Source: Saccharolobus solfataricus
GTDB taxonomy: Archaea > Thermoproteota > Thermoprotei_A > Sulfolobales > Sulfolobaceae
Direction: 5' to 3'
Assembly (NCBI RefSeq): GCF_900079115.1
Contig: NZ_LT549890.1
Location: 1,980,001-2,012,000 of the forward strand
Length of the DNA: 32,000 nucleotides
Made by a program: the position numbers and the translations under genes. The notes beneath the pieces are model-generated. The model was not told where the DNA came from. It saw nothing but the letters and a program-made list of their open reading frames with translations, and ran no database searches. How positions within the stretch are numbered: the first letter of the stretch is position 1; each line of letters begins with the position of its first letter. Positions 5,439 through 26,351 of the stretch are shown here, one piece after another.

Positions 5439-5470
5439 ATTTATTCCTGAACTACTCTTGTCAGATATGC

Positions 5471-5490
5471 ATTACTCAGATCTGAGTAAT
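5471..5490. terminator. perfect 20-bp palindrome about 30 nt after the treY stop, followed by a T-rich tract
   Basis: attactcaga/tctgagtaat is an exact reverse complement, followed by atgtttta. A terminator role is only a guess. Confidence 0.3.
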
Positions 5491-5504
5491 ATGTTTTATA
5501 TAAG

Positions 5505-5830
5505 AGATGAAGCATGTGATTCCTCTGGGCCATTTAGGTTTCCATTACAAATTCACTATATTTTCATGAATTATGATAAATTTAACTGAGTAAAAACGGT
5601 TAATAAAGGGAATTCATGCTTAATCGCGTCATGGTGTCATTATTAAGCTATAAATTTTCTTTCTAATATTCAAACGTATATTAAGTATATCAGTTTAACG
5701 TCTTCTCCTCATGAAGATCATTTAACCTAATTAATTTGTAGCTCAGTGATTACACTATGAATCGCGTTAACACATTTATACTTATACTGTTTATAAATTA
5801 CAATTCGCAACGGATCCAGGAGTCCTCCAA
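5505..5830 (+). repeat. AT-rich non-coding repeat block, copy 1 (interrupted by a 131-bp MITE); copy 2 is at 23818-24015
   Basis: By-eye alignment: atgaagcatgtgattcctctgggccatttaggtttccattacaaattcac... here versus atgaagtatgagtttctaagggccattcaagttttcattgcaaattcat... at 23821. Colinear through ..aatggatcc. Confidence 0.6.
5629..5759. mobile_element. about 131-bp MITE with imperfect terminal IRs and a 7-8 bp target duplication
   Basis: aatcgcg occurs at 5622-5628 and again at 5760-5766. The uninterrupted paralogous repeat at 23940-23955 has a single aatcgtg. Ends are tcatggtgtcat.. and ..attacactatga. The size is compatible with the SM-type MITEs described for S. solfataricus (recollection). 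Confidence 0.6.
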
Positions 5831-5915
5831 ATGACGTTTTGCATGCCTCAATCAAGCTGAGGAGCACCATTAACATTACTAAGAAATATTTTGAAAAAAG
5901 AGGTGTTTAAATATA

Positions 5916-6161
5916 GGACTATCCATCCCATAGGGGTTTGGGCTTCATAGGATTTCATGATATTTCATCTCAATCCTCAGCCCTTGGGCTTCACCAAAGT
6001 CACGGACGTTCATCCCTCTCCGCCCCATTAGCGGAATAACCCCAACCCACACCCGTGAACGGATGTGAGGAAATCCGCACATCCTGTATCTCAACACCAG
6101 CCTTTCGGGATACGAACCCACATTTGGTGGTGCGTCATCAGATTATATTATATGTGTTTTT
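5916..6161 (+). ncRNA. candidate structured RNA / GC-rich repeat family, copy a
   Basis: TATA-like tttaaatata at 5906-5915 lies directly 5' of it. The body is GC-rich with perfect local stems, e.g. ggatgtg(6061-6067)/cacatcc(6078-6084). A T5 run follows at 6157-6161. The 5' part aligns with 19421-19470 and 26220-26260. The overlapping 72-aa ORF (6055-6273) looks non-coding. Confidence 0.3.
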
Positions 6162-6177
6162 CATATTATCCTATATA

Positions 6178-6211
6178 AACTTTACGGTTTATCGGAAACC
6201 GTTGGCAACGG
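6178..6211 (+). repeat. 34-nt double-hairpin boundary motif, copy a
   Basis: AACTTTACGGTTTATCGGAAACCGTTGGCAACGG. Stems ACGGTTT/AAACCGT and CCGTTG/CAACGG. 32/34 identical to the reverse complement of 22002-22035 and 29/34 to 20897-20930. Confidence 0.7.
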
Positions 6212-6262
6212 TGAATTTTCCGCCGCCCCCAACTTTACAGAAATTACATTATCATGTGTATG

Positions 6263-6400
6263 TGCTTAGTTGATCTGTTGGATATTTTTACACTAAACCA
6301 CTATTATCTTCATTTCAATTAATCTCAAGGTCTACAATTTAGGCTTGTGAGATATCTTAAACGTTTGCTAAAAATTCAACAAGTCCACAAAGCAATGTGT
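6263..6400 (+). repeat. about 138-bp repeat upstream of vapBC (second copy at 22958-23095)
   Basis: tgcttagttgatctgttggatattttta..ttcaattaatctca..aaaattcaa.aa.tcca.aaagca aligns colinearly with 22958-23095. Roughly three quarters identical by eye. Confidence 0.6.
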
Positions 6401-12225: not shown

Positions 12226-12598
12226 GCCTTTGCAGTGTACGGTACTCCCAAAATCATTTTACAAATGTAAATTCAATAAAGATTATCATATTATTTCCTA
12301 AAATATAAGAAAATTTATCCTATTACACCTATTATTGATTACCTAAAATTCAATTATATGTATCCAATAATATAAATAAAATGAAATTTCTTCGAATCTA
12401 ATGCTATTTTTGATATATTAATATTAATTAATACTTTTTATGTTAACTATTATAAAAAGACATTGTTGTGATACTAAGATTTTCCATAAATTTTTATAGA
12501 ATTGAGTAAGATAACCGTATAATGCGCTATAATTAGTTATTAACGGAAAACTATTATTTTTAATAATACGATTTTGGATCTACCGAGAAGGGGCGAGG
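12226..12598 (+). mobile_element. about 373-bp non-autonomous element with ISC1217-type termini, copy A
   Basis: Ends ..gtacggtactcccaaaatcattttacaaa and gattttggatctaccgagaaggggcgagg match both ends of the IS at 17253-18469. The interior is AT-rich, has no ORF, and aligns with the reverse complement of 25584-25978. Confidence 0.6.
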
Positions 12599-12980: not shown

Positions 12981-14209
12981 GAGAGTGTCCGGAATGTAAA
13001 AAATTGAATTTTTATTGGCAAGAATAAATTGGTTTCTAGTATTATCTTGGATTAAATTGGAGTAACACTTAAGTTATGGGAGTAGAGGGTAGTACCATGG
13101 CAAGAACATTAAGACACATACCAAACCTGATGTACTACCCTCTTCCCCCAATAGAGGATATGCCGTGGAGGGAAAAATGGTTAACGGAGATCAAGCCCGT
13201 GCTGGACGCCATGGATTTGGAGAGGGTCCTTGGCGAGGGCGCGCTGGTTTACCTGAAGTTGTTAATCGTCATGGTGCTCTATTCCTGCTCCTATAGGGAC
13301 GCGGTGAAAATGGTCAACGTGAACGTGGTCGTGGCCTGGTTCGTGGGGAGGAAGGTGGGGAAGAGCACGCTGCACGACTTCGTGGGCAGGTTGTACGGGG
13401 TGAGGAAGAAGTTGTTGGAGATTTCCTTCAAGCTTGAGGAGAAGTGCCTACCCAGTTACCTCCCTGCGAGCGCGCATCTCGTGGACTTCATGGCGTGGCT
13501 AGTGGACTCCTTCCTACTGGACTTACCTCCTGGGAAGAGGAGCGTGGAGACCTTTCGGGAGAAGGCGGAGCTGGAGAGGAGGGAAGGTAACTTGGAGAGG
13601 GCCGGGAAGCTGCTCTCCCTGGGGAGAACCAAGAGGAGGTTCGAGGGAAGGTGGACCAAGAAGAGAGGGGTCTCGCACTACGGGCTCAAGGCAGTGGCCG
13701 TGATCTCCGTCTCCCTCTTCGTGAGGTCCATCACGTTGAAGCCAGCCAACTTCTCGGACAAGAGGTTCAAGTCACCGCTCAAGGGGATTAAGATCGCGGA
13801 CAGGGGATTCTCTCCCTCCCCGACACAGCTCATAGCGCGGGAGAAGCCCTTCACTACCCTGAGGGCCCACGTGGAGTTCTTCGGCACCTACCTGAACGCG
13901 TTCTGGAGGCCCTACGGGACTACGACTTGGAGGAACGACGTCTTCCTTCACGTCCTGGGAGTGATCTACAACATCAAGATATTCCTCGCGATCCAACGGA
14001 GGACTCCTCCAGAACGTAGAGCCGTTCAGCTCTGAGACGCACCTCCTCGCGATCAGACAACGCTATGCGCGATAGGTAAATCCTCTCGTCTTGATATTTT
14101 TCCATTATAAAGTTTTTCTCGGTGATCCAGGTCCTATCCTTCTGGCAATATTAATATTTATCATTCTGTTTATCTATTCGTTCAGATAATTACATTCCGG
14201 ACACTCTCT
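12981..14209 (+). mobile_element. IS5-family insertion sequence, 1229 bp under this boundary choice (size fits the name ISC1229; identity not verified)
   Basis: Terminal IR gagagtgtccggaatgta (12981-12998) versus tacattccggacactctc (14191-14208). cgt is duplicated at 12978-12980 and 14210-12. Removing the element restores ttttcacgttacctttt, which matches the intact paralogue ttttcacgtcacctttt at 24466-24482. Confidence 0.8.
13076..14035 (+). CDS. IS5-family DDE transposase
   Basis: 319 aa. N-terminal DUF772-like LVYLKLLIVMVLYSCSYRDAV..VVAWFVG. Candidate DDE residues in WLVDSFLLD, IKIADRGF and AHVEFFGTY. The ORF is conspicuously GC-rich compared with its own AT-rich IS ends. Confidence 0.85.
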   Translation: MGVEGSTMARTLRHIPNLMYYPLPPIEDMPWREKWLTEIKPVLDAMDLERVLGEGALVYLKLLIVMVLYSCSYRDAVKMVNVNVVVAWFVGRKVGKSTLHDFVGRLYGVRKKLLEISFKLEEKCLPSYLPASAHLVDFMAWLVDSFLLDLPPGKRSVETFREKAELERREGNLERAGKLLSLGRTKRRFEGRWTKKRGVSHYGLKAVAVISVSLFVRSITLKPANFSDKRFKSPLKGIKIADRGFSPSPTQLIAREKPFTTLRAHVEFFGTYLNAFWRPYGTTTWRNDVFLHVLGVIYNIKIFLAIQRRTPPERRAVQL

Positions 14210-19420: not shown

Positions 19421-19600
19421 AGGGGTCGGACTTTCATTGAGGTTTCATGAATTTGTATTCAACCCCTCGTCCTCATACCCCTTATTTTCCTCCCCATGCC
19501 GTCTACGGGACTAACTCCCTTCAAGGACATGGGGAGTTTCATTGGGTGCCTTCCTCCCCCTCACATTGCTCACAGAGTTCATTGTGGCACCCTCTAACTT
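19421..19600 (+). repeat. GC-rich structured repeat, copy L (left arm of the inverted pair)
   Basis: Perfect stems aggggt(19421-26)/acccct(19462-67), ctccccatg(19490-98)/catggggag(19528-36) and gggtgcc(19544-50)/ggcaccc(19586-92). Aligns with the reverse complement of 21735-21915. Confidence 0.7.
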
Positions 19601-19616
19601 AATGTTAGCATGAAAG

Positions 19617-19624
19617 TTTATAAA
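19617..19624 (+). promoter_or_regulatory. TATA box (tttataaa, preceded by aaag) for the AbrB-like/TnpB-like genes
   Basis: Centred about 27 nt upstream of the ATG at 19647, the usual spacing for leaderless Sulfolobus mRNAs. Confidence 0.4.
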
Positions 19625-19646
19625 TTTTAATGCTTCTAACATTCTT

Positions 19647-19811
19647 ATGGAGCAAATAGTTTTCAGATCAACGGTCTCAAGTTATGGTACAGATAAGTAT
19701 GGGAATAAAAGATATGGCATAACAATACCTTCAAAACTAAGGGATAAGGGTGAGAAATTATACGGCAAGGAGGTGATTGTAATTGTTATCCTACCAGATG
19801 ATGAGGAGTAA
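19647..19811 (+). CDS. 54-aa SpoVT/AbrB-like (swapped-hairpin) small protein, absent from the ORF track
   Basis: MEQIVFRSTVSSYGTDKYGNKRYGITIPSKLRDKGEKLYGKEVIVIVILPDDEE. The GITIPSKLR...GKEV.V.V pattern is typical of AbrB/MazE/VapB-type DNA binders. It overlaps the next gene's ATG by 14 nt. Confidence 0.5.
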   Translation: MEQIVFRSTVSSYGTDKYGNKRYGITIPSKLRDKGEKLYGKEVIVIVILPDDEE

Positions 19812-20892
19812 ATTAATAGGGTCTAAGGAAGCACTTGATAACTTTCAATTCGTCACAATAAACGGTAAAGTGATTTTCAACGAGAAAGACAAGGTTGTTA
19901 GGATTGCTAGGGTTTACTCACAAGTTGTTAAGAGTGCTATTAAACCGTTGTTTGATGGGAAGAGTGTTGATGAGTTAACTAAGGAGTTTTATAATGTTTT
20001 ACCTAACTATGTTTATCTTGAAACTGCTTTAAAGCAAGCTAAGACAATTGTTGAGGGTTTGTTAGAAAGGGAGGAAGAGAGGGGTGAGATAATTCATGCA
20101 AGGATTAGAAAGTTCTGGTTTGGGAGTAGGGGTAATAAAAGTGATAGGGGTAATAGGAATATGAAGTTCCGCGTTTTAGAAGACCGCGTGTTAATTAAGG
20201 TTAGAGACCCGTGGAATAAGGAGTGGATTTTTGGGAAAGCTTATTTCGGTAAGGAGTACTTACCACTGCTTAAGGAGTTGGAGGATTTAGCTCAAAGGAA
20301 GGAGGAGGGTTACGGTGCTTTAGTAAGTTTTAAGGAAAAGTCGATGATTCACCTTCAAATCCCACTCTGGTTGTACTTGAAACACTTCTCTTTACCGAAG
20401 CCTACGGGTTACGGTTTGATTGCTGGTTTTGATTTAAATAGTGACAGACTGAACGTTGTTGTGATTAACAAAGATGGTAAAGTTATTACTACTAGAACTT
20501 TTTGGTATTCAGATGTTACTAGGCCAGGTTTTCCGAAAGTGAAAGCTAGGGCTTTACGGTTAAACGCTTTATCTAACTCCCTGGAGTTCCTATCAAGGAT
20601 TGGTGTTGATTACGTCGTTTTTGAGGATTTATTCCTAGTTAAGAGGAGGAAGTTTATCAAGAGTAAAAGTGGTAATAGGAAGATTAGCAAATTTGCTAAG
20701 AAGCAGTTACTAATTCACGGTGTTATTAAATCTTTAAGGTTTGGTTTTAACGTCGTGTTGGTCAATCCTAAGGGTACTACTAACTCTGGGGAGCATGATA
20801 GGGTAATGAGGGAAAAAGGGTTTGACAAGCATACGGCATCAGCTTACTTAATAGCATTAAAAGGGTTAGGAATGTTGAATGATATTAAATGA
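19798..20892 (+). CDS. tnpB: TnpB-like RuvC-fold protein (IS200/IS605 OrfB lineage) without the usual zinc finger
   Basis: About 364 aa from the ATG at 19798 (the ORF track starts at TTG 19783). RuvC-like motifs IAGFDLNSDRL, YVVFEDL and VNPKGTTNS....FDKHTASAYLIALKG. No CxxC pairs lie between the last two motifs. Confidence 0.75.
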   Translation: MMRSKLIGSKEALDNFQFVTINGKVIFNEKDKVVRIARVYSQVVKSAIKPLFDGKSVDELTKEFYNVLPNYVYLETALKQAKTIVEGLLEREEERGEIIHARIRKFWFGSRGNKSDRGNRNMKFRVLEDRVLIKVRDPWNKEWIFGKAYFGKEYLPLLKELEDLAQRKEEGYGALVSFKEKSMIHLQIPLWLYLKHFSLPKPTGYGLIAGFDLNSDRLNVVVINKDGKVITTRTFWYSDVTRPGFPKVKARALRLNALSNSLEFLSRIGVDYVVFEDLFLVKRRKFIKSKSGNRKISKFAKKQLLIHGVIKSLRFGFNVVLVNPKGTTNSGEHDRVMREKGFDKHTASAYLIALKGLGMLNDIK

Positions 20893-21277
20893 CATGAACT
20901 TCACGACTTATCGGAAACTGTTGACAACGGCAAAGGATTACTTAAAAGCTTCCGAACTGTCATTTGAGCACAACCTTTATGAAGCCTCAGCATTAAACAG
21001 TGAAATTTCAGCCCAACTCTCCTTAATTTTCAAGTTAGGAATAGAGCCTCCCCGAACTCACGGGATTAGAGAGTTACTTTCATTAATATACGCGAAACTT
21101 GGAGATAAAAGGATAAGTGACTTTACGAAGGAGAATAGAGAAAAACTCATTATTCTAGAGAACGTGAGAGGAAAGTCACAGTACGGTTTACCTCCAGTGT
21201 CTAGGGACGAGGCTGAAATAGCTTTAAGTACTGCGCAGGAAATACTAAAACTTGTAGAATCATTATGGAACCTATAG
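20879..21277 (+). CDS. HEPN-domain protein (toxin-like partner of MNT)
   Basis: 132 aa. AKDYLKASELSFEHNLYEASALNSEISAQL...PPRTHGIRELL fits HEPN. The start may be ATG 20894 (MNFTTYRK). Overlaps the tnpB stop and the MNT start. Confidence 0.8.
   Translation: MILNDMNFTTYRKLLTTAKDYLKASELSFEHNLYEASALNSEISAQLSLIFKLGIEPPRTHGIRELLSLIYAKLGDKRISDFTKENREKLIILENVRGKSQYGLPPVSRDEAEIALSTAQEILKLVESLWNL
20897..20930 (+). repeat. 34-nt double-hairpin boundary motif, copy b (encodes HEPN codons 2-12 counted from ATG 20894)
   Basis: AACTTCACGACTTATCGGAAACTGTTGACAACGG. 29/34 identical to copy a. Similarity among the three copies ends right after CAACGG. Confidence 0.7.
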
Positions 21278-21585
21278 AGAAGATAAAGTTATTACGAAAC
21301 TGGAGGGAAGCACTTAGAAAGCTTAACCTTGAAAGATTTGAAGAAGTATATGTGTTCGGCTCTGTAGTAAGCGACAAGATAACTGGGGCAAGTGATATTG
21401 ACTTAATCTTGGTTATTAAACGGGGTGAAGATAGGAATAAAGCGCTAATAGGCTTCTTCGATGAGGTCGAGAGCAAACTAGGGGAGAAAGCATCATATCT
21501 GTTTGACGTTAAAGTAATTTATGAAGATGAGAAAGAATTACCGCCATACAAGTTCTTTCTCAGAGATGCAGTGAGAGTAAAATGA
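21265..21585 (+). CDS. minimal nucleotidyltransferase (MNT), partner of HEPN
   Basis: 106 aa. VYVFGSVVSDKITGASDIDLILV carries the GS...DxD pol-beta NTase signature. 13-nt overlap with the HEPN gene. Confidence 0.85.
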   Translation: MEPIEKIKLLRNWREALRKLNLERFEEVYVFGSVVSDKITGASDIDLILVIKRGEDRNKALIGFFDEVESKLGEKASYLFDVKVIYEDEKELPPYKFFLRDAVRVK

Positions 21586-21734: not shown

Positions 21735-21915
21735 GAGAGTATCACTATGAACTCTATGAGCAGTTGAGAGGGGGAGGAAAGTACTCAATGAAACTCCTCA
21801 TGTCGTGATTGGGAGGTAGGCTCCCTAACCTAGGCACGGGGAGGGAGAAGAAGTGATGAGACTGAGTAACTAGTAGTAATTAAAAATAACTATTAGTTAC
21901 GATGAAAGCCGAACT
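21735..21915 (-). repeat. GC-rich structured repeat, copy R (right arm, inverted relative to L)
   Basis: The reverse complement aligns with 19421-19600. A core of about 70 nt (gacatgaggagtttcattgagtactttcctccccctc..) is roughly 80-85 percent identical by eye and the flanks are weaker. It also retains part of the downstream attttaagctt promoter-proximal sequence. Confidence 0.7.
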
Positions 21916-22001
21916 CTGTTGTACTTCCTAAGATTTTAAAAGATAAGATAGTTCATCTTAATACACAGAAGATTTTTGCGTGCTTTTTTAGGGTATTATT
22001 G

Positions 22002-22035
22002 CCGTTGCCAACAGTTTTCGATAAACCGTAAAGTT
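22002..22035 (-). repeat. 34-nt double-hairpin boundary motif, copy c (inverted)
   Basis: Reverse complement is AACTTTACGGTTTATCGAAAACTGTTGGCAACGG, 32/34 identical to copy a. It is preceded on the minus strand by ttttataaata and followed by unrelated sequence. Confidence 0.7.
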
Positions 22036-22350
22036 TATATTATTTTGCATATATATTTATAAAAGTTGAAACAATCCACAAACCATCACTTTTCTCTACT
22101 TTTTAAGATATCTCCTCACTAAGATATCAGGAGGGATATTGTTAGAGAATGCTATTCGATAAATTGTTGATTAGTATATAATGAACATCTTAAACAAGAT
22201 CCCACCCACTATTATTGCTAAAGTTATCATAAAGAGTATTTTGTAGTTCTTCAAAGAATCCCTACTTGTCATTATAGATAAGCCTAAAAGTAACGGGCGA
22301 CGGATCTATTAAATAAGCTGCTGAAAAATTTACTAGTGCCTCAAATATAA

Positions 22351-24196: not shown

Positions 24197-25360
24197 TTAT
24201 ATAAAGGATAAAGATATTTTAAGTCTGTTGGATACAGATTGACCCGCCATACTCAAGATAAACTCAAAGATGAAACGATAAAAGGGAGCATTGTTCATAA
24301 GCTCTAGAATTCTATTGTCCTTAATATTGGCGTAAGCTATTCCTAGTGAACTAGAGATTTCATCTAAATAGAATAAGTAGTTACTTTCTGCGGTAATTTC
24401 ATTTATTATATTAAATAGAATATCCGGTTTGTCTACTGACTCCAAGAAAATGATCCCGACGTTAATTTTCACGTCACCTTTTAACTTCTGAAAGGCTTCC
24501 AAAGCAATGTCTAAGTATCTTTCCTTGTTAGTGTAGATATAAGCTGTATTAGCGGAAAGAGCGCGCATCATACTATTTGTGGTCTTATCTCCATGTTTAA
24601 TCCTCTCTATACTATCAATTAACTTGTCAACCTCGTCAATTTCATTGAAGATGGAGTGATAGCTCACTAACGAGTGAGCGGAGAAATAGAATTCATAGTC
24701 ATATTTCTTTAAGCCTTCCCTTAAACTCTCCACGAACTTCTCGCTTTCTTTAATTCTTCCTAGACCTCTTAATGCCACTGCCAAAGTATAATTATTTAGA
24801 ATTTTCTCCGTTTTTTCTCTTTTTACTCTTTCATTAAGCATAAGAGCGTCTTCAACCAATTCTGACCTGGCCGGTTCCTTATCAAACCTAATTGCTATAC
24901 TCCTTAGAAATTCAGAAATATTGGATTCAGTATTATAAGATGGATTATCTCTTAACAATCTCATGAAATACTCCATAGGATCATAATCCTCTAATAGGTG
25001 AGAACATTCTGCGATTACCCCCATTAAAGCTAACTTGGAATACGTAGGCTTCCTTCCACTGAGGCATTCGAGAAGAATAAGCGTATTAGAAACTAAAACC
25101 TTATCCTCAACAATTCTCTTATTTTTCTGAAGTATTATAGACATAGTATCCTTGTCTCCCATTATTAGGTAAACTTCAGCTAGTTTAACTAAGTGATCAG
25201 CAGAATGATCTCTCCTCTTTAAGATCTTATAGTACTCGTCCAGCTCATCTTTAGTTAGAATATTTTCCGAAGCTCTGTATAGATAATAATAAATCTCGGC
25301 AAATCTCCTTTCATAGGCACTTAGACCCCTTGTGAGTTCCTCAACTTCTTTGAAGTCCAT
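24197..25360 (-). CDS. all-helical repeat protein of unknown function (TPR-like)
   Basis: 387 aa with no catalytic motif recognised. A disrupted paralogue lies next to the ATPase gene at 12712-14575. Confidence 0.75.
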   Translation of the reverse strand: MDFKEVEELTRGLSAYERRFAEIYYYLYRASENILTKDELDEYYKILKRRDHSADHLVKLAEVYLIMGDKDTMSIILQKNKRIVEDKVLVSNTLILLECLSGRKPTYSKLALMGVIAECSHLLEDYDPMEYFMRLLRDNPSYNTESNISEFLRSIAIRFDKEPARSELVEDALMLNERVKREKTEKILNNYTLAVALRGLGRIKESEKFVESLREGLKKYDYEFYFSAHSLVSYHSIFNEIDEVDKLIDSIERIKHGDKTTNSMMRALSANTAYIYTNKERYLDIALEAFQKLKGDVKINVGIIFLESVDKPDILFNIINEITAESNYLFYLDEISSSLGIAYANIKDNRILELMNNAPFYRFIFEFILSMAGQSVSNRLKISLSFI

Positions 25361-25583: not shown

Positions 25584-25978
25584 CCCTGCCCTAACCGGTA
25601 GACCCAAAATCGTATTATTAAAAACAATTGCTTTCTGTTTATAACTAATGATCATGCATTATACGATTATTTTATTTAATTATATCAAAATTTATGGGAA
25701 AAATCCAGCTCTATAGTAATATTTTTTATGATTGTTTACCTAAAAAGTGTAAAATTGGTGAAATGCCCCTGGTTATTGGGTATGAACATGTATCAAAAAT
25801 AACATTAGATTCAAAGAAATTTCATTTTATTTATATTGTTAGATGGGTATAATTGTATTTTAGGTTATTAATGATAAGTACAATGGGATATGTTTTCTTA
25901 TATTTGAAGAAACAATATGATAATCTTAGCTGAATTTATATTTGTAAGACTATTTTGGGTCTACCGTAACGGACAAGG
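25584..25978 (-). mobile_element. about 395-bp non-autonomous element with ISC1217-type termini, copy B
   Basis: ccctgccctaaccggtagacccaaaatcg at the left end and attttgggtctaccgtaacggacaagg at the right. The interior aligns with the reverse complement of copy A (e.g. aatataaataaaatgaaatttctt.gaatctaatg.tatttttgata). Confidence 0.6.
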
Positions 25979-26215
25979 CTTCCTGCTTCACAACCCCACC
26001 TTGCCAGCGGTAGAGGGCGGAGCTCCACACTAAGGGTCGTTCCGACCCCGAACGAAACTCATTAACCATGACACTGTTACCGCCTTTGGGGCTACTGTCT
26101 GGAGCAGAGGCGTACCTCATTGACCCTCGCTTTAACCAAGGCGTCTCGGTGACGCTCACTCCATTGGTAACTATCATTAAGAAATTTATGATTAGATTAG
26201 TTAAAAAACTTTTAT
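25979..26215. other. GC-rich island between two mobile elements: candidate structured RNA or degenerate GC-rich repeat member
   Basis: Local perfect stems: gggtcg/cgaccc-type (26034-26049 region) and gcgtc..gacgc (26141-26157 region). The overlapping ORFs on both strands (25950-26231 minus, 26068-26262 plus) have no protein-like features. Confidence 0.25.
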
Positions 26216-26351
26216 ATAAGGGGCTATCCATCCCTCACAGAAGGGGACTTTCGCCCCCTTAACCCCCGTTAAGATAAAACATATTAGTCAGATCTATGCG
26301 ATATAGATCTGACTGGGGTTGAGACCGTTGACTCCTTTGGGCTTAGAGCTC

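Follow-up and report, generated by a model that had tools for sequence, protein, structure and literature searches.

Trans antisense regulation in a hyperthermophilic archaeon has its first, textbook example in the RNA-257 small RNAs (sRNAs) of Saccharolobus solfataricus. As described for strain P2, RNA-257 1-4 (older names: RNA-257, RNA-107, RNA-91, RNA-20) are four paralogous intergenic sRNAs, all detected by northern blot at levels that drop under phosphate limitation, and proposed to destabilise the SSO1183 mRNA in trans via base-pairing with its 3' untranslated region (UTR) (Maertens et al., 2013, EMBO Rep, PMC3674436). Their core is homologous, in sense orientation, to the distal part of the transposase open reading frame (ORF) of the insertion sequence ISC1904 (ORF2, SSO1182), the 3' UTR of SSO1183 is antisense to an ISC1904 tnpB tail, and this target is confined to S. 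solfataricus (PMC3674436). All four genes carry a box A ~30 bp upstream with an inverted repeat before it, and the origin of the promoter was ascribed to "subtle nucleotide exchanges" in a transposon remnant (PMC3674436). A guide-RNA role and mobility are absent from that paper, since it predates the discovery of TnpB as an RNA-guided nuclease. The omegaRNAs (obligate mobile element-guided activity RNAs) of IS605/IS607 elements have guides that overlap the right-end boundary, and a homing and retention model has been shown for IS605 and IS607 elements; protein-less IS200/IS605 elements resembling PATEs (palindrome-associated transposable elements) often carry omegaRNAs and need TnpB in trans (Meers et al., 2023, PMC10055086). 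Here we compare these systems with a locus at 5933-6211, on the minus strand, of a 32,000-nt stretch of S. solfataricus DNA (contig NZ_LT549890.1; hereafter the window), which holds the gene for RNA-257-3 and very likely represents a miniature, protein-less derivative of ISC1904.

The assignment of the locus to RNA-257-3 is practically certain, as is its strand. The published northern probe for this RNA (GGTGGTGCGTCATCAGATTAT) coincides with the plus strand at 6126-6146 (21/21 bases), a single site in the window, in which the probes of the other RNA-257 paralogues have no match. Because the probe has the plus-strand sequence, RNA-257-3 is transcribed from the minus strand and includes position 6146, and because the probe maps here, the locus is a known expressed sRNA gene. 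The published fragment of the SSO1183 3' UTR, to which (rather than to the whole UTR) this comparison applies, aligns with the plus strand at 6041-6054 (14/14) and 6059-6083 (24/25), and the minus-strand RNA is therefore complementary to it. The remaining hallmarks of the family are also present, namely a sense orientation relative to the tnpB tail and a box A with an inverted repeat (TATA box at 6172-6179, inverted repeats at 6184-6211, minus strand). An antisense role for the RNA-257-3 paralogue is somewhat more probable than not. A preliminary description of the window had proposed a noncoding RNA gene here, which is confirmed by a discrete transcript on a northern blot (PMC3674436) whose probe maps to the locus; its choice of the plus strand, however, was mistaken, as shown by the probe polarity and by the conservation of the minus-strand TATA box. 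The locus is thus an already published sRNA, and the bare finding of it is nothing new.

The relationship to ISC1904 rests on several lines of evidence. A BLAST comparison with archaeal plasmids and viruses matched 5931-6086 at ~80% identity to the 3' end of a gene that carries a TnpB or transposase annotation in the S. islandicus plasmid pYN01, Acidianus tailed spindle virus (ATSV) and the fusellovirus SSV10; in all three, this gene runs opposite to the window plus strand and adjoins an IS607-type tnpA. A second segment, 6172-6211, maps directly 5' of the tnpA start codon and corresponds to the left end (LE) of the parent. By tblastn, minus strand 5948-6085 encodes TnpB residues 381-429 (E = 1e-13) followed by a stop at 5945-5947, and a CxxC fragment of TnpB is found at 6096-6125. 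The partner TnpA belongs to the IS607 transposases (NCBIfam NF033518, 226 bits vs. a cut-off of 110) and is a near-identical match (262 bits) to the S. solfataricus protein of PDB 3ILX ("First ORF in transposon ISC1904"), while the partner TnpB exceeds the NCBIfam cut-off for RNA-guided TnpB (110 bits). An intact ISC1904 (TnpA 192 aa, TnpB 422 aa) resides in the same assembly as the window locus, and to this copy (L074) the tail and core are 92% identical over 161 nt and the LE 87%; the presence of this intact copy alongside the locus seems to be a new observation. The LE is 87-92% identical to the segment upstream of tnpA in pYN01, SSV10, ATSV, L018 and L074; for the right end (RE) and core, identity to TnpA-encoding elements is 80-92%. 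From the BLAST, tblastn, NCBIfam and 3ILX evidence, 5933-6211 therefore consists of the LE, the tnpB tail and the RE of an ISC1904-type element, and we consider it very likely that it is a 279-bp protein-less internal-deletion derivative of such an IS607-family insertion sequence. Compared with full ISC1904, it lacks ~1.65 kb (tnpA and most of tnpB) and a further ~73 nt of the tnpB tail.

Hence the ISC1904 homology bears out the earlier proposal of a protein-less derivative of a TnpB-carrying insertion sequence that keeps only its ends, including the guide-RNA scaffold region. The TnpB-like gene at 19783-20892 of the window is not the parent: ISC1904-type TnpB gives no tblastn hit there, and the ORF encodes a different TnpB-like protein. 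The full ISC1904 parent copies lie outside the window, elsewhere in the genome. No TnpA and no full ISC1904-type TnpB match was obtained anywhere in the window (tblastn); an autonomous IS607 element would encode TnpA, and the locus is accordingly a derivative. The features of the element and its flank are as follows.

5933-6211, minus strand: whole element and RNA-257-3 (old name RNA-91) gene, from end-to-end alignment and the break of homology at the flanks.
6172-6211, minus strand: LE with inverted repeats and TATA box, from homology to the sequence upstream of tnpA.
6199-6211, minus strand: palindrome CCGTTGCCAACGG in the LE.
6184-6203, minus strand: second inverted repeat AACGGTTT..AAACCGT in the LE.
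6172-6179, minus strand: TATA box TTTATATA in the LE, in full elements the promoter of leaderless tnpA.
6134-6171, minus strand: AT-rich spacer and 5' leader, with a predicted transcription start near 6148.
5933-6133, minus strand: last ~200 nt of tnpB and RE, from tnpB homology; the region where TnpB guide RNAs are encoded.
6094-6133, minus strand: 5' hairpin SL0, with arms 6126-6133 (GCACCACC) and 6094-6102 (GGCTGGTGT) and apical CCCGAAAGG.
6046-6069, minus strand: hairpin H1, CTCACATCCG / CGGGTGTGGG, loop TTCA.
5933-6085, minus strand: omegaRNA-like scaffold core (last 45 codons of tnpB and 12 nt to the RE), from tblastn, the covariance model and identity to resident ISC1904.
5945-5947, minus strand: former tnpB stop codon TGA, from alignment with full-length tnpB.
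5913-5932, minus strand: predicted guide segment (5'-UAUGGGAUGGAUAGUCCUAU) directly after the RE, should the RNA act as an omegaRNA, after the omegaRNA architecture of IS605/IS607.
5894-5899, minus strand: T6 run 34-39 nt past the RE, read from the sequence; a likely terminator.

The bounds of the element are sharply defined: it can be aligned over its full length with the short elements L007, L017, L024 and L025 (71-74% identity), and homology to more than 40 independent copies with differing flanks breaks exactly at 5933 and 6211. Since this homology begins only at 5933, positions 5916-5932 are flank, and the left boundary at 5916 given in the preliminary description has to be moved inwards. 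All 279 bp are unchanged in two complete S. solfataricus genomes, on record with identical treY products; genes around the locus are treX, treY, a PIN-domain toxin gene and a tricorn protease gene. The block at 5916-6161 is GC-rich as originally stated (48.4% vs. a window mean of 35.9%, a level reached by 3% of 246-nt windows). Both termini of the element bear the same dinucleotide, CC (GG on the other strand), in CCGTTG.. at its start and ..AAACCCC at its end, and neither terminal inverted repeats nor flanking direct repeats (target-site duplication) were found at 5933-6211. These termini are those of IS607 elements as published, which have CC/GG at both termini and lack terminal inverted repeats and target duplication. 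The earlier label of a MITE (miniature inverted-repeat transposable element)-like unit is consequently apt only in a loose sense, for a miniature non-autonomous element, as a strict MITE has both the terminal inverted repeats and the target-site duplication that are missing here.

Self-comparison of the 32-kb window revealed no second copy of the element body, so that the "repeat copy" of the preliminary description holds for the ends and boundary motif and not for the body. The boundary motif itself is real (6172-6211): its 39 nt at 6173-6211 recur in the window at 22002-22040 (inverted) and 20894-20930. Two further copies had been suggested. The one at 19421-19455 is a genuine relative, although confined to the terminal 33-41 nt of ISC1904-type right ends (19433-19473, 80-88% identity). 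The other, at 26220-26260, reduces to 24 similar nucleotides outside the element (5906-5929 vs. 26211-26234, 83%), with a window-wide E of 0.14 and an equal match in 1 of 300 local shuffles.

The position of the LE in full elements, where the tnpA ATG lies 23-24 nt after the TATA box, provides a simple rationale for the RNA-257-3 promoter. By analogy, transcription is predicted to start near 6148, 24 nt after the TATA box, and probe coverage up to 6146 agrees with a start ~24 nt downstream of the LE TATA at 6172-6179. We are quite confident that the LE promoter drives RNA-257-3. It would yield a structured RNA of ~215-255 nt running from near 6148 through the RE at 5933 into the flank, with an end probably at the T6 run (5894-5899). 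That the RNA-257 promoter is the transposon's own LE, fused at the tnpA start codon, is apparently new.

The same layout is shared by a family of short elements. A scan of one genome per species with a conserved 22-mer yielded 26 loci in Metallosphaera yellowstonensis (18 loci), Acidianus, Stygiolobus, a Sulfolobaceae genome and an Acidilobus metagenome-assembled genome (MAG). In five full elements, among them the plasmid and virus references, the LE is 1850-1871 nt upstream of the 22-mer; in eight loci, the window included, this distance shrinks to 79-222 nt, and three loci are intermediate. Short elements consist of an LE with its TATA box, an AT-rich spacer of ~24 nt, the hairpin GTCACACC..CCCGAAAGG..GGTGTGAC and, after it, AAGATGTGCGG with the remaining tail as far as ..GAAGCCCAAACCCC. 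The spacer of L025 matches a full element up to the base preceding the tnpA ATG, so that the large deletion sets in where the leaderless tnpA mRNA starts. When metagenomes were scanned with a junction specific to the short form, 41 contigs were returned, at least 15 of them with complete copies of 257-276 bp in mostly different flanks. Over all loci, the number of distinct flanks is 36 for the LE and 40 for the RE, and homology always ends at CCGT.. and ..AAACCCC. A G precedes the LE in 34 of the 36 distinct insertions, with -2 never G and -3 mostly A (left-flank consensus W-A-H-G, followed by CC). The occurrence of short elements with the same layout at many sites across several Sulfolobales genera and metagenomes seems to be new.

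With regard to these insertion sites, the G before the LE could represent either a preference for a target or target-adjacent motif (TAM) or the true first base of the element. Identical RE flanks were also observed across organisms (L005/L029 and L015/L020, with L006 and L020 also concerned), in the combinations Metallosphaera vs. Stygiolobus and Metallosphaera vs. a "Methanobacteriota" MAG, and could be explained by recent transfer or mis-binned contigs. At 1814-1938 of L008 (Acidilobus MAG), a tail fragment of ISC1904 type abuts a right end of Sso133 type, so that the two tail families are again nested or in tandem.

Conservation of RNA structure was assessed with a covariance model (R1) built from 19 tails, full and short, with a hand-drawn structure, a check already suggested in the preliminary description. 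R1 produced 72 matches in the sequences searched, of which two fall in the window, both on the minus strand: 5933-6085, with 151.7 bits (E = 1e-42, whole model covered), and, weakly, 19422-19561 (25.2 bits). In the 72-sequence alignment, 95% of cells form standard pairs (vs. 86% for shuffles and 32-51% for slid partners), 13 of the 26 pairs change on both sides, and the observed pairing scores were reached by none of 500 shuffles. The H1 hairpin stands out with both-side changes in 9/9 pairs and 92% of cells paired; its inner stems are as unlike as CACATCC/GGATGTG, CATCAGA/TCTGATG and CACCT/AGGTG, and, as an independent check, 30 distinct sequence variants each fold alone to a hairpin at the same position. 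SL0 exists as four distinct compensating stems, one each in pYN01-type full elements (AAGTCCTGCC/GGCAGGACTT), resident ISC1904 (GGTCTTGCC/GGTAAGACC), the common short elements (GTCACACC/GGTGTGAC) and the window copy, and one pair of H5 passes through G:C, G:U and A:U. Of 9 full elements, 7 have an open tnpB frame, vs. 8 of 38 short or other copies, and protein coding does not explain the conservation because the frame is broken in 30 of these 38 non-full copies. The persistence of hairpin pairing by compensatory changes despite a broken reading frame likewise seems new. Thus, the segment has covariation-supported structure, with three helices invariant and the alignment fitted to the model; it also overlaps the tnpB 3' end, ends at the RE and lies on the tnpB sense strand, in line with the architecture of omegaRNAs.

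A stem put forward originally, ggatgtg/cacatcc at 6061-6067/6078-6084, has the sequence and position given and may form in the window copy; it is, however, not conserved, since relatives pair CACATCC (6061-6067) with 6046-6055, and those with a CATCAGA or CACCTC arm keep AAGATGTG unchanged. Two other candidate helices were considered. A long-range helix of GGGTTT (after GATGTGC) with AAACCC at the RE appears in single-sequence folds, yet every variant in it is uncompensated and it was left out of the model; in a GGGCU/AGCCC helix suggested by RNAalifold, the first pair is broken by AACGGCT in many copies, and a local AGCC-CAAG-GGCU hairpin fits equally well.

Combining these observations, a two-part scheme can be proposed. 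Two internal deletions joined the LE to the last ~200 nt of tnpB and the RE, the LE supplying transposase-binding inverted repeats together with the TATA box of the leaderless tnpA promoter, and the retained tail being the segment that encodes the guide-RNA scaffold for TnpB. The TnpB of resident ISC1904 copies could load RNA-257-3 as a guide RNA, with the flank 5913-5932, which is not conserved between copies, as its guide; such use in trans is a tentative proposal, to which we give somewhat less than even chances. ISC1904 TnpA could, in turn, move the 279-bp unit by acting on both ends. A broader extension, possible and slightly more doubtful still, would regard the RNA-257 loci as mobile "guide-only" IS607 elements across Sulfolobales, including host co-option, rather than as accidental promoter-gain remnants. 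Such elements would have an LE promoter fused precisely to a streamlined omegaRNA and would borrow, from full ISC1904 copies, TnpA for movement and TnpB for homing or retention, with possible competition for TnpB; S. solfataricus would then have co-opted the RNAs as trans antisense regulators of a phosphate-transporter mRNA. If this is true, one RNA would have both a selfish and a host function.

Several points weigh against parts of this scheme. The window copy has A at -1, an exception to the G before the LE that it shares with L016, and a spacer (6134-6171) ~14 nt longer than in other short elements, both of which question the activity of this copy, possibly a relic that no longer moves or is poorly targeted. 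An empty site, which would prove insertion at this position, was not encountered in three related contigs, which all have the same spacing downstream of treY, two with the exact element. Both the transcription start and the terminator at the locus are predicted positions, and loading by TnpB is extrapolated from the homing and retention model of IS605/IS607. The antisense experiments were performed with RNA-257-1, and RNA-257-3 is included through homology and its northern signal. Finally, the R1 alignment was fitted to the model, which favours structure, and most helices besides H1, H5 and SL0 are invariant and hence uninformative.

An alternative in which RNA-257-3 is purely a host-exapted antisense regulator, i.e., an immobile remnant with recently inherited structure and no link to TnpB or transposition, is unlikely without being negligible. 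It can draw on the experimental support for trans antisense control of SSO1183 by RNA-257 RNAs, on the SSO1183 complementarity at the locus, and on the deviant base and longer spacer just mentioned. On the other hand, SSO1183 is found only in S. solfataricus, yet the short architecture occurs in multiple copies at many sites in other genera and metagenomes, and it was in protein-less copies that SL0 and H1 acquired their compensatory changes; because the target is species-restricted, the architecture widespread and the compensation located in protein-less copies, selection is more readily tied to the element itself. Improbable, in our estimate, is a functionless, decaying transposon fragment transcribed only via a surviving LE promoter. 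Such an origin would fit the wealth of insertion-sequence debris in S. solfataricus genomes and the several solo ends in the window, and a function of RNA-257-3 by itself would, at present, be assigned from homology. It is at odds with the integrity of both ends, with a core 92% identical to resident ISC1904 in which all helices are kept, with the identity of the element in two sequenced strains, with regulated expression (PMC3674436), and with a layout common to the whole family, unlike random decay.

The two remaining alternatives can be largely set aside. The plus-strand gene of the preliminary description, in which a TATA box (tttaaatata, 5906-5915) precedes the body (5916-6156) and TTTTT (6157-6161) serves as T5 terminator, is very improbable. 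Both motifs occur at these positions, TTTAWATA is fairly infrequent, with 17 matches on both strands of the 32 kb, and the plus-strand fold has a z of -2.4. Nevertheless, a probe of plus-strand sequence detects only minus-strand RNA, the proposed TATA box lies in non-conserved flank whereas that at 6172-6179 on the minus strand is within the conserved LE, the T5 run falls in the variable spacer, and all relatives are sense to tnpB. Scarcely credible is a small protein gene for a 45-58-aa C-terminal TnpB remnant, despite an open frame in the window copy and a 58-aa ORF annotated in CP050869.1 at 5945-6121 (minus strand): the product has no protein family hit and lacks all catalytic parts of TnpB, and the frame is broken in 30 of the 38 related short or other copies.

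The window contains additional features related to mobile elements. A second, diverged ISC1904-like short element at 19422-20935 is seemingly split by another transposon: its tail and RE (19422-19561, minus strand, the R1 match of 25 bits) overlap Rfam Sso133 (19490-19552, minus strand, 62.6 bits), the sole Rfam match in the window at the gathering threshold, and an LE-like motif follows at 20884-20935 (minus strand). Between these ends lies a 369-aa TnpB-like ORF (19783-20892, plus strand; TIGR01765, 71 bits), in a region that looks like a ~1.3-kb solo-tnpB element nested in the short element. The overlap suggests that Sso133 itself is a piece of a TnpB guide-RNA-like tail. An inverted copy of this tail type is located at 21765-21819 (55 nt, 80% complementary to 19511-19565, with an end near 21912), and ~90 nt beyond it a solo ISC1904-type LE in plus orientation (22001-22064) has nothing recognisable behind it. 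Paired genes for a HEPN protein (132 aa) and a nucleotidyltransferase (106 aa) occupy 20879-21585; as annotated, the HEPN ORF begins in overlap with the LE-like motif (20884-20935), and its true start may be further downstream.

Adjacent to the RE of RNA-257-3, the flank has 24 nt (TTTAWATA..GG.CTATCCATCCC) in common between 5906-5929 and 26211-26234, the latter abutting a GC-rich fragment like the tnpB tail (26235-26278, similar to L021), and a nearby 40-nt stretch is repeated in inverted orientation (5460-5499 vs. 26274-26313). This mosaic may stem from an older repeat in common, from preference for a target site or from rearrangement. Two blocks repeated in inverted orientation (181 nt and 113 nt, with 82-83% identity), 13 kb apart at 12238-12592 and 25589-25968, probably represent another non-autonomous element family. 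Direct repeats are found at 14207-14506/24469-24768 (300 nt, 94%) and 12692-12947/24185-24440 (256 nt, 80%), the second pair overlapping a 387-aa ORF (24197-25360) without a Pfam match. The GC maximum of the window, up to ~59-61% at 13050-13400, falls in a 319-aa ORF that weakly matches the DUF772 transposases, and this stretch resembles a foreign insertion sequence. A search for tRNA genes in the window gave none.

Overall, the view of the RNA-257 family as mini-elements of ISC1904 across Sulfolobales, each made of an LE promoter and an omegaRNA, is a modest, testable addition to what has been described; with this anatomy, an old archaeal sRNA becomes linked to RNA-guided transposon biology. 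A search of the accessible literature found no paper joining RNA-257 and TnpB in this sense, a link that may still have been made. The concept of protein-less elements whose omegaRNAs serve TnpB in trans is already known, because Meers et al. noted it for IS200/IS605, and an IS607 element with an LE promoter is a variant of it.

A side-by-side comparison with the most closely related systems reveals, in each case, both agreement and differences. With ISC1904, ISC1926 and ISSis5 (IS607 family, Sulfolobales), the window element shares a homologous LE and RE, terminal CC/GG and the lack of terminal inverted repeats and target duplication; it differs by the loss of tnpA, most of tnpB (~1.65 kb) and ~73 nt of the tail. 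PATE-like elements and SMN1 of S. islandicus likewise keep both ends, often carry an omegaRNA and take TnpA/TnpB from trans, yet the former belong to IS200/IS605, with a tyrosine (Y1) transposase and hairpin ends, in contrast to the serine-recombinase family IS607 here. An identity with SMN1 was rejected, as SMN1 is linked to ISC1733, listed as IS200/605, vs. ISC1904 here; the two are set apart by parent family, not by the SMN1 sequence. Rfam RF02814 (Sso133) is comparable as a Sulfolobus sRNA family on a diverged ISC1904-like tnpB tail in the same window (19490-19552, minus strand), although it gives no hit to 5933-6211 at E values as high as 10; the Rfam search suggested in the preliminary description returned no family for 5700-6400 (release 15, gathering threshold or E up to 10), bar one chance long noncoding RNA hit. 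The omegaRNAs (or right-end-element RNAs, reRNAs) of IS605/IS607 resemble the window RNA in their origin from the tnpB 3' end, in crossing the RE, in being structured, GC-rich and sense to tnpB, and in a flank that would serve as guide; the window RNA differs in having its own promoter and no adjacent tnpB, it has no Rfam match, and its binding by TnpB is putative. With RNA-257 1-4, finally, the agreement extends to a location between genes, to an orientation in sense to the transposase, to a core homologous to distal ISC1904 ORF2 and to the box A with its inverted repeat, whereas the promoter, traced in the 2013 paper to nucleotide exchanges, and its inverted repeat are identified in the present analysis as the transposon's own left end, fused to the tail by deletion.

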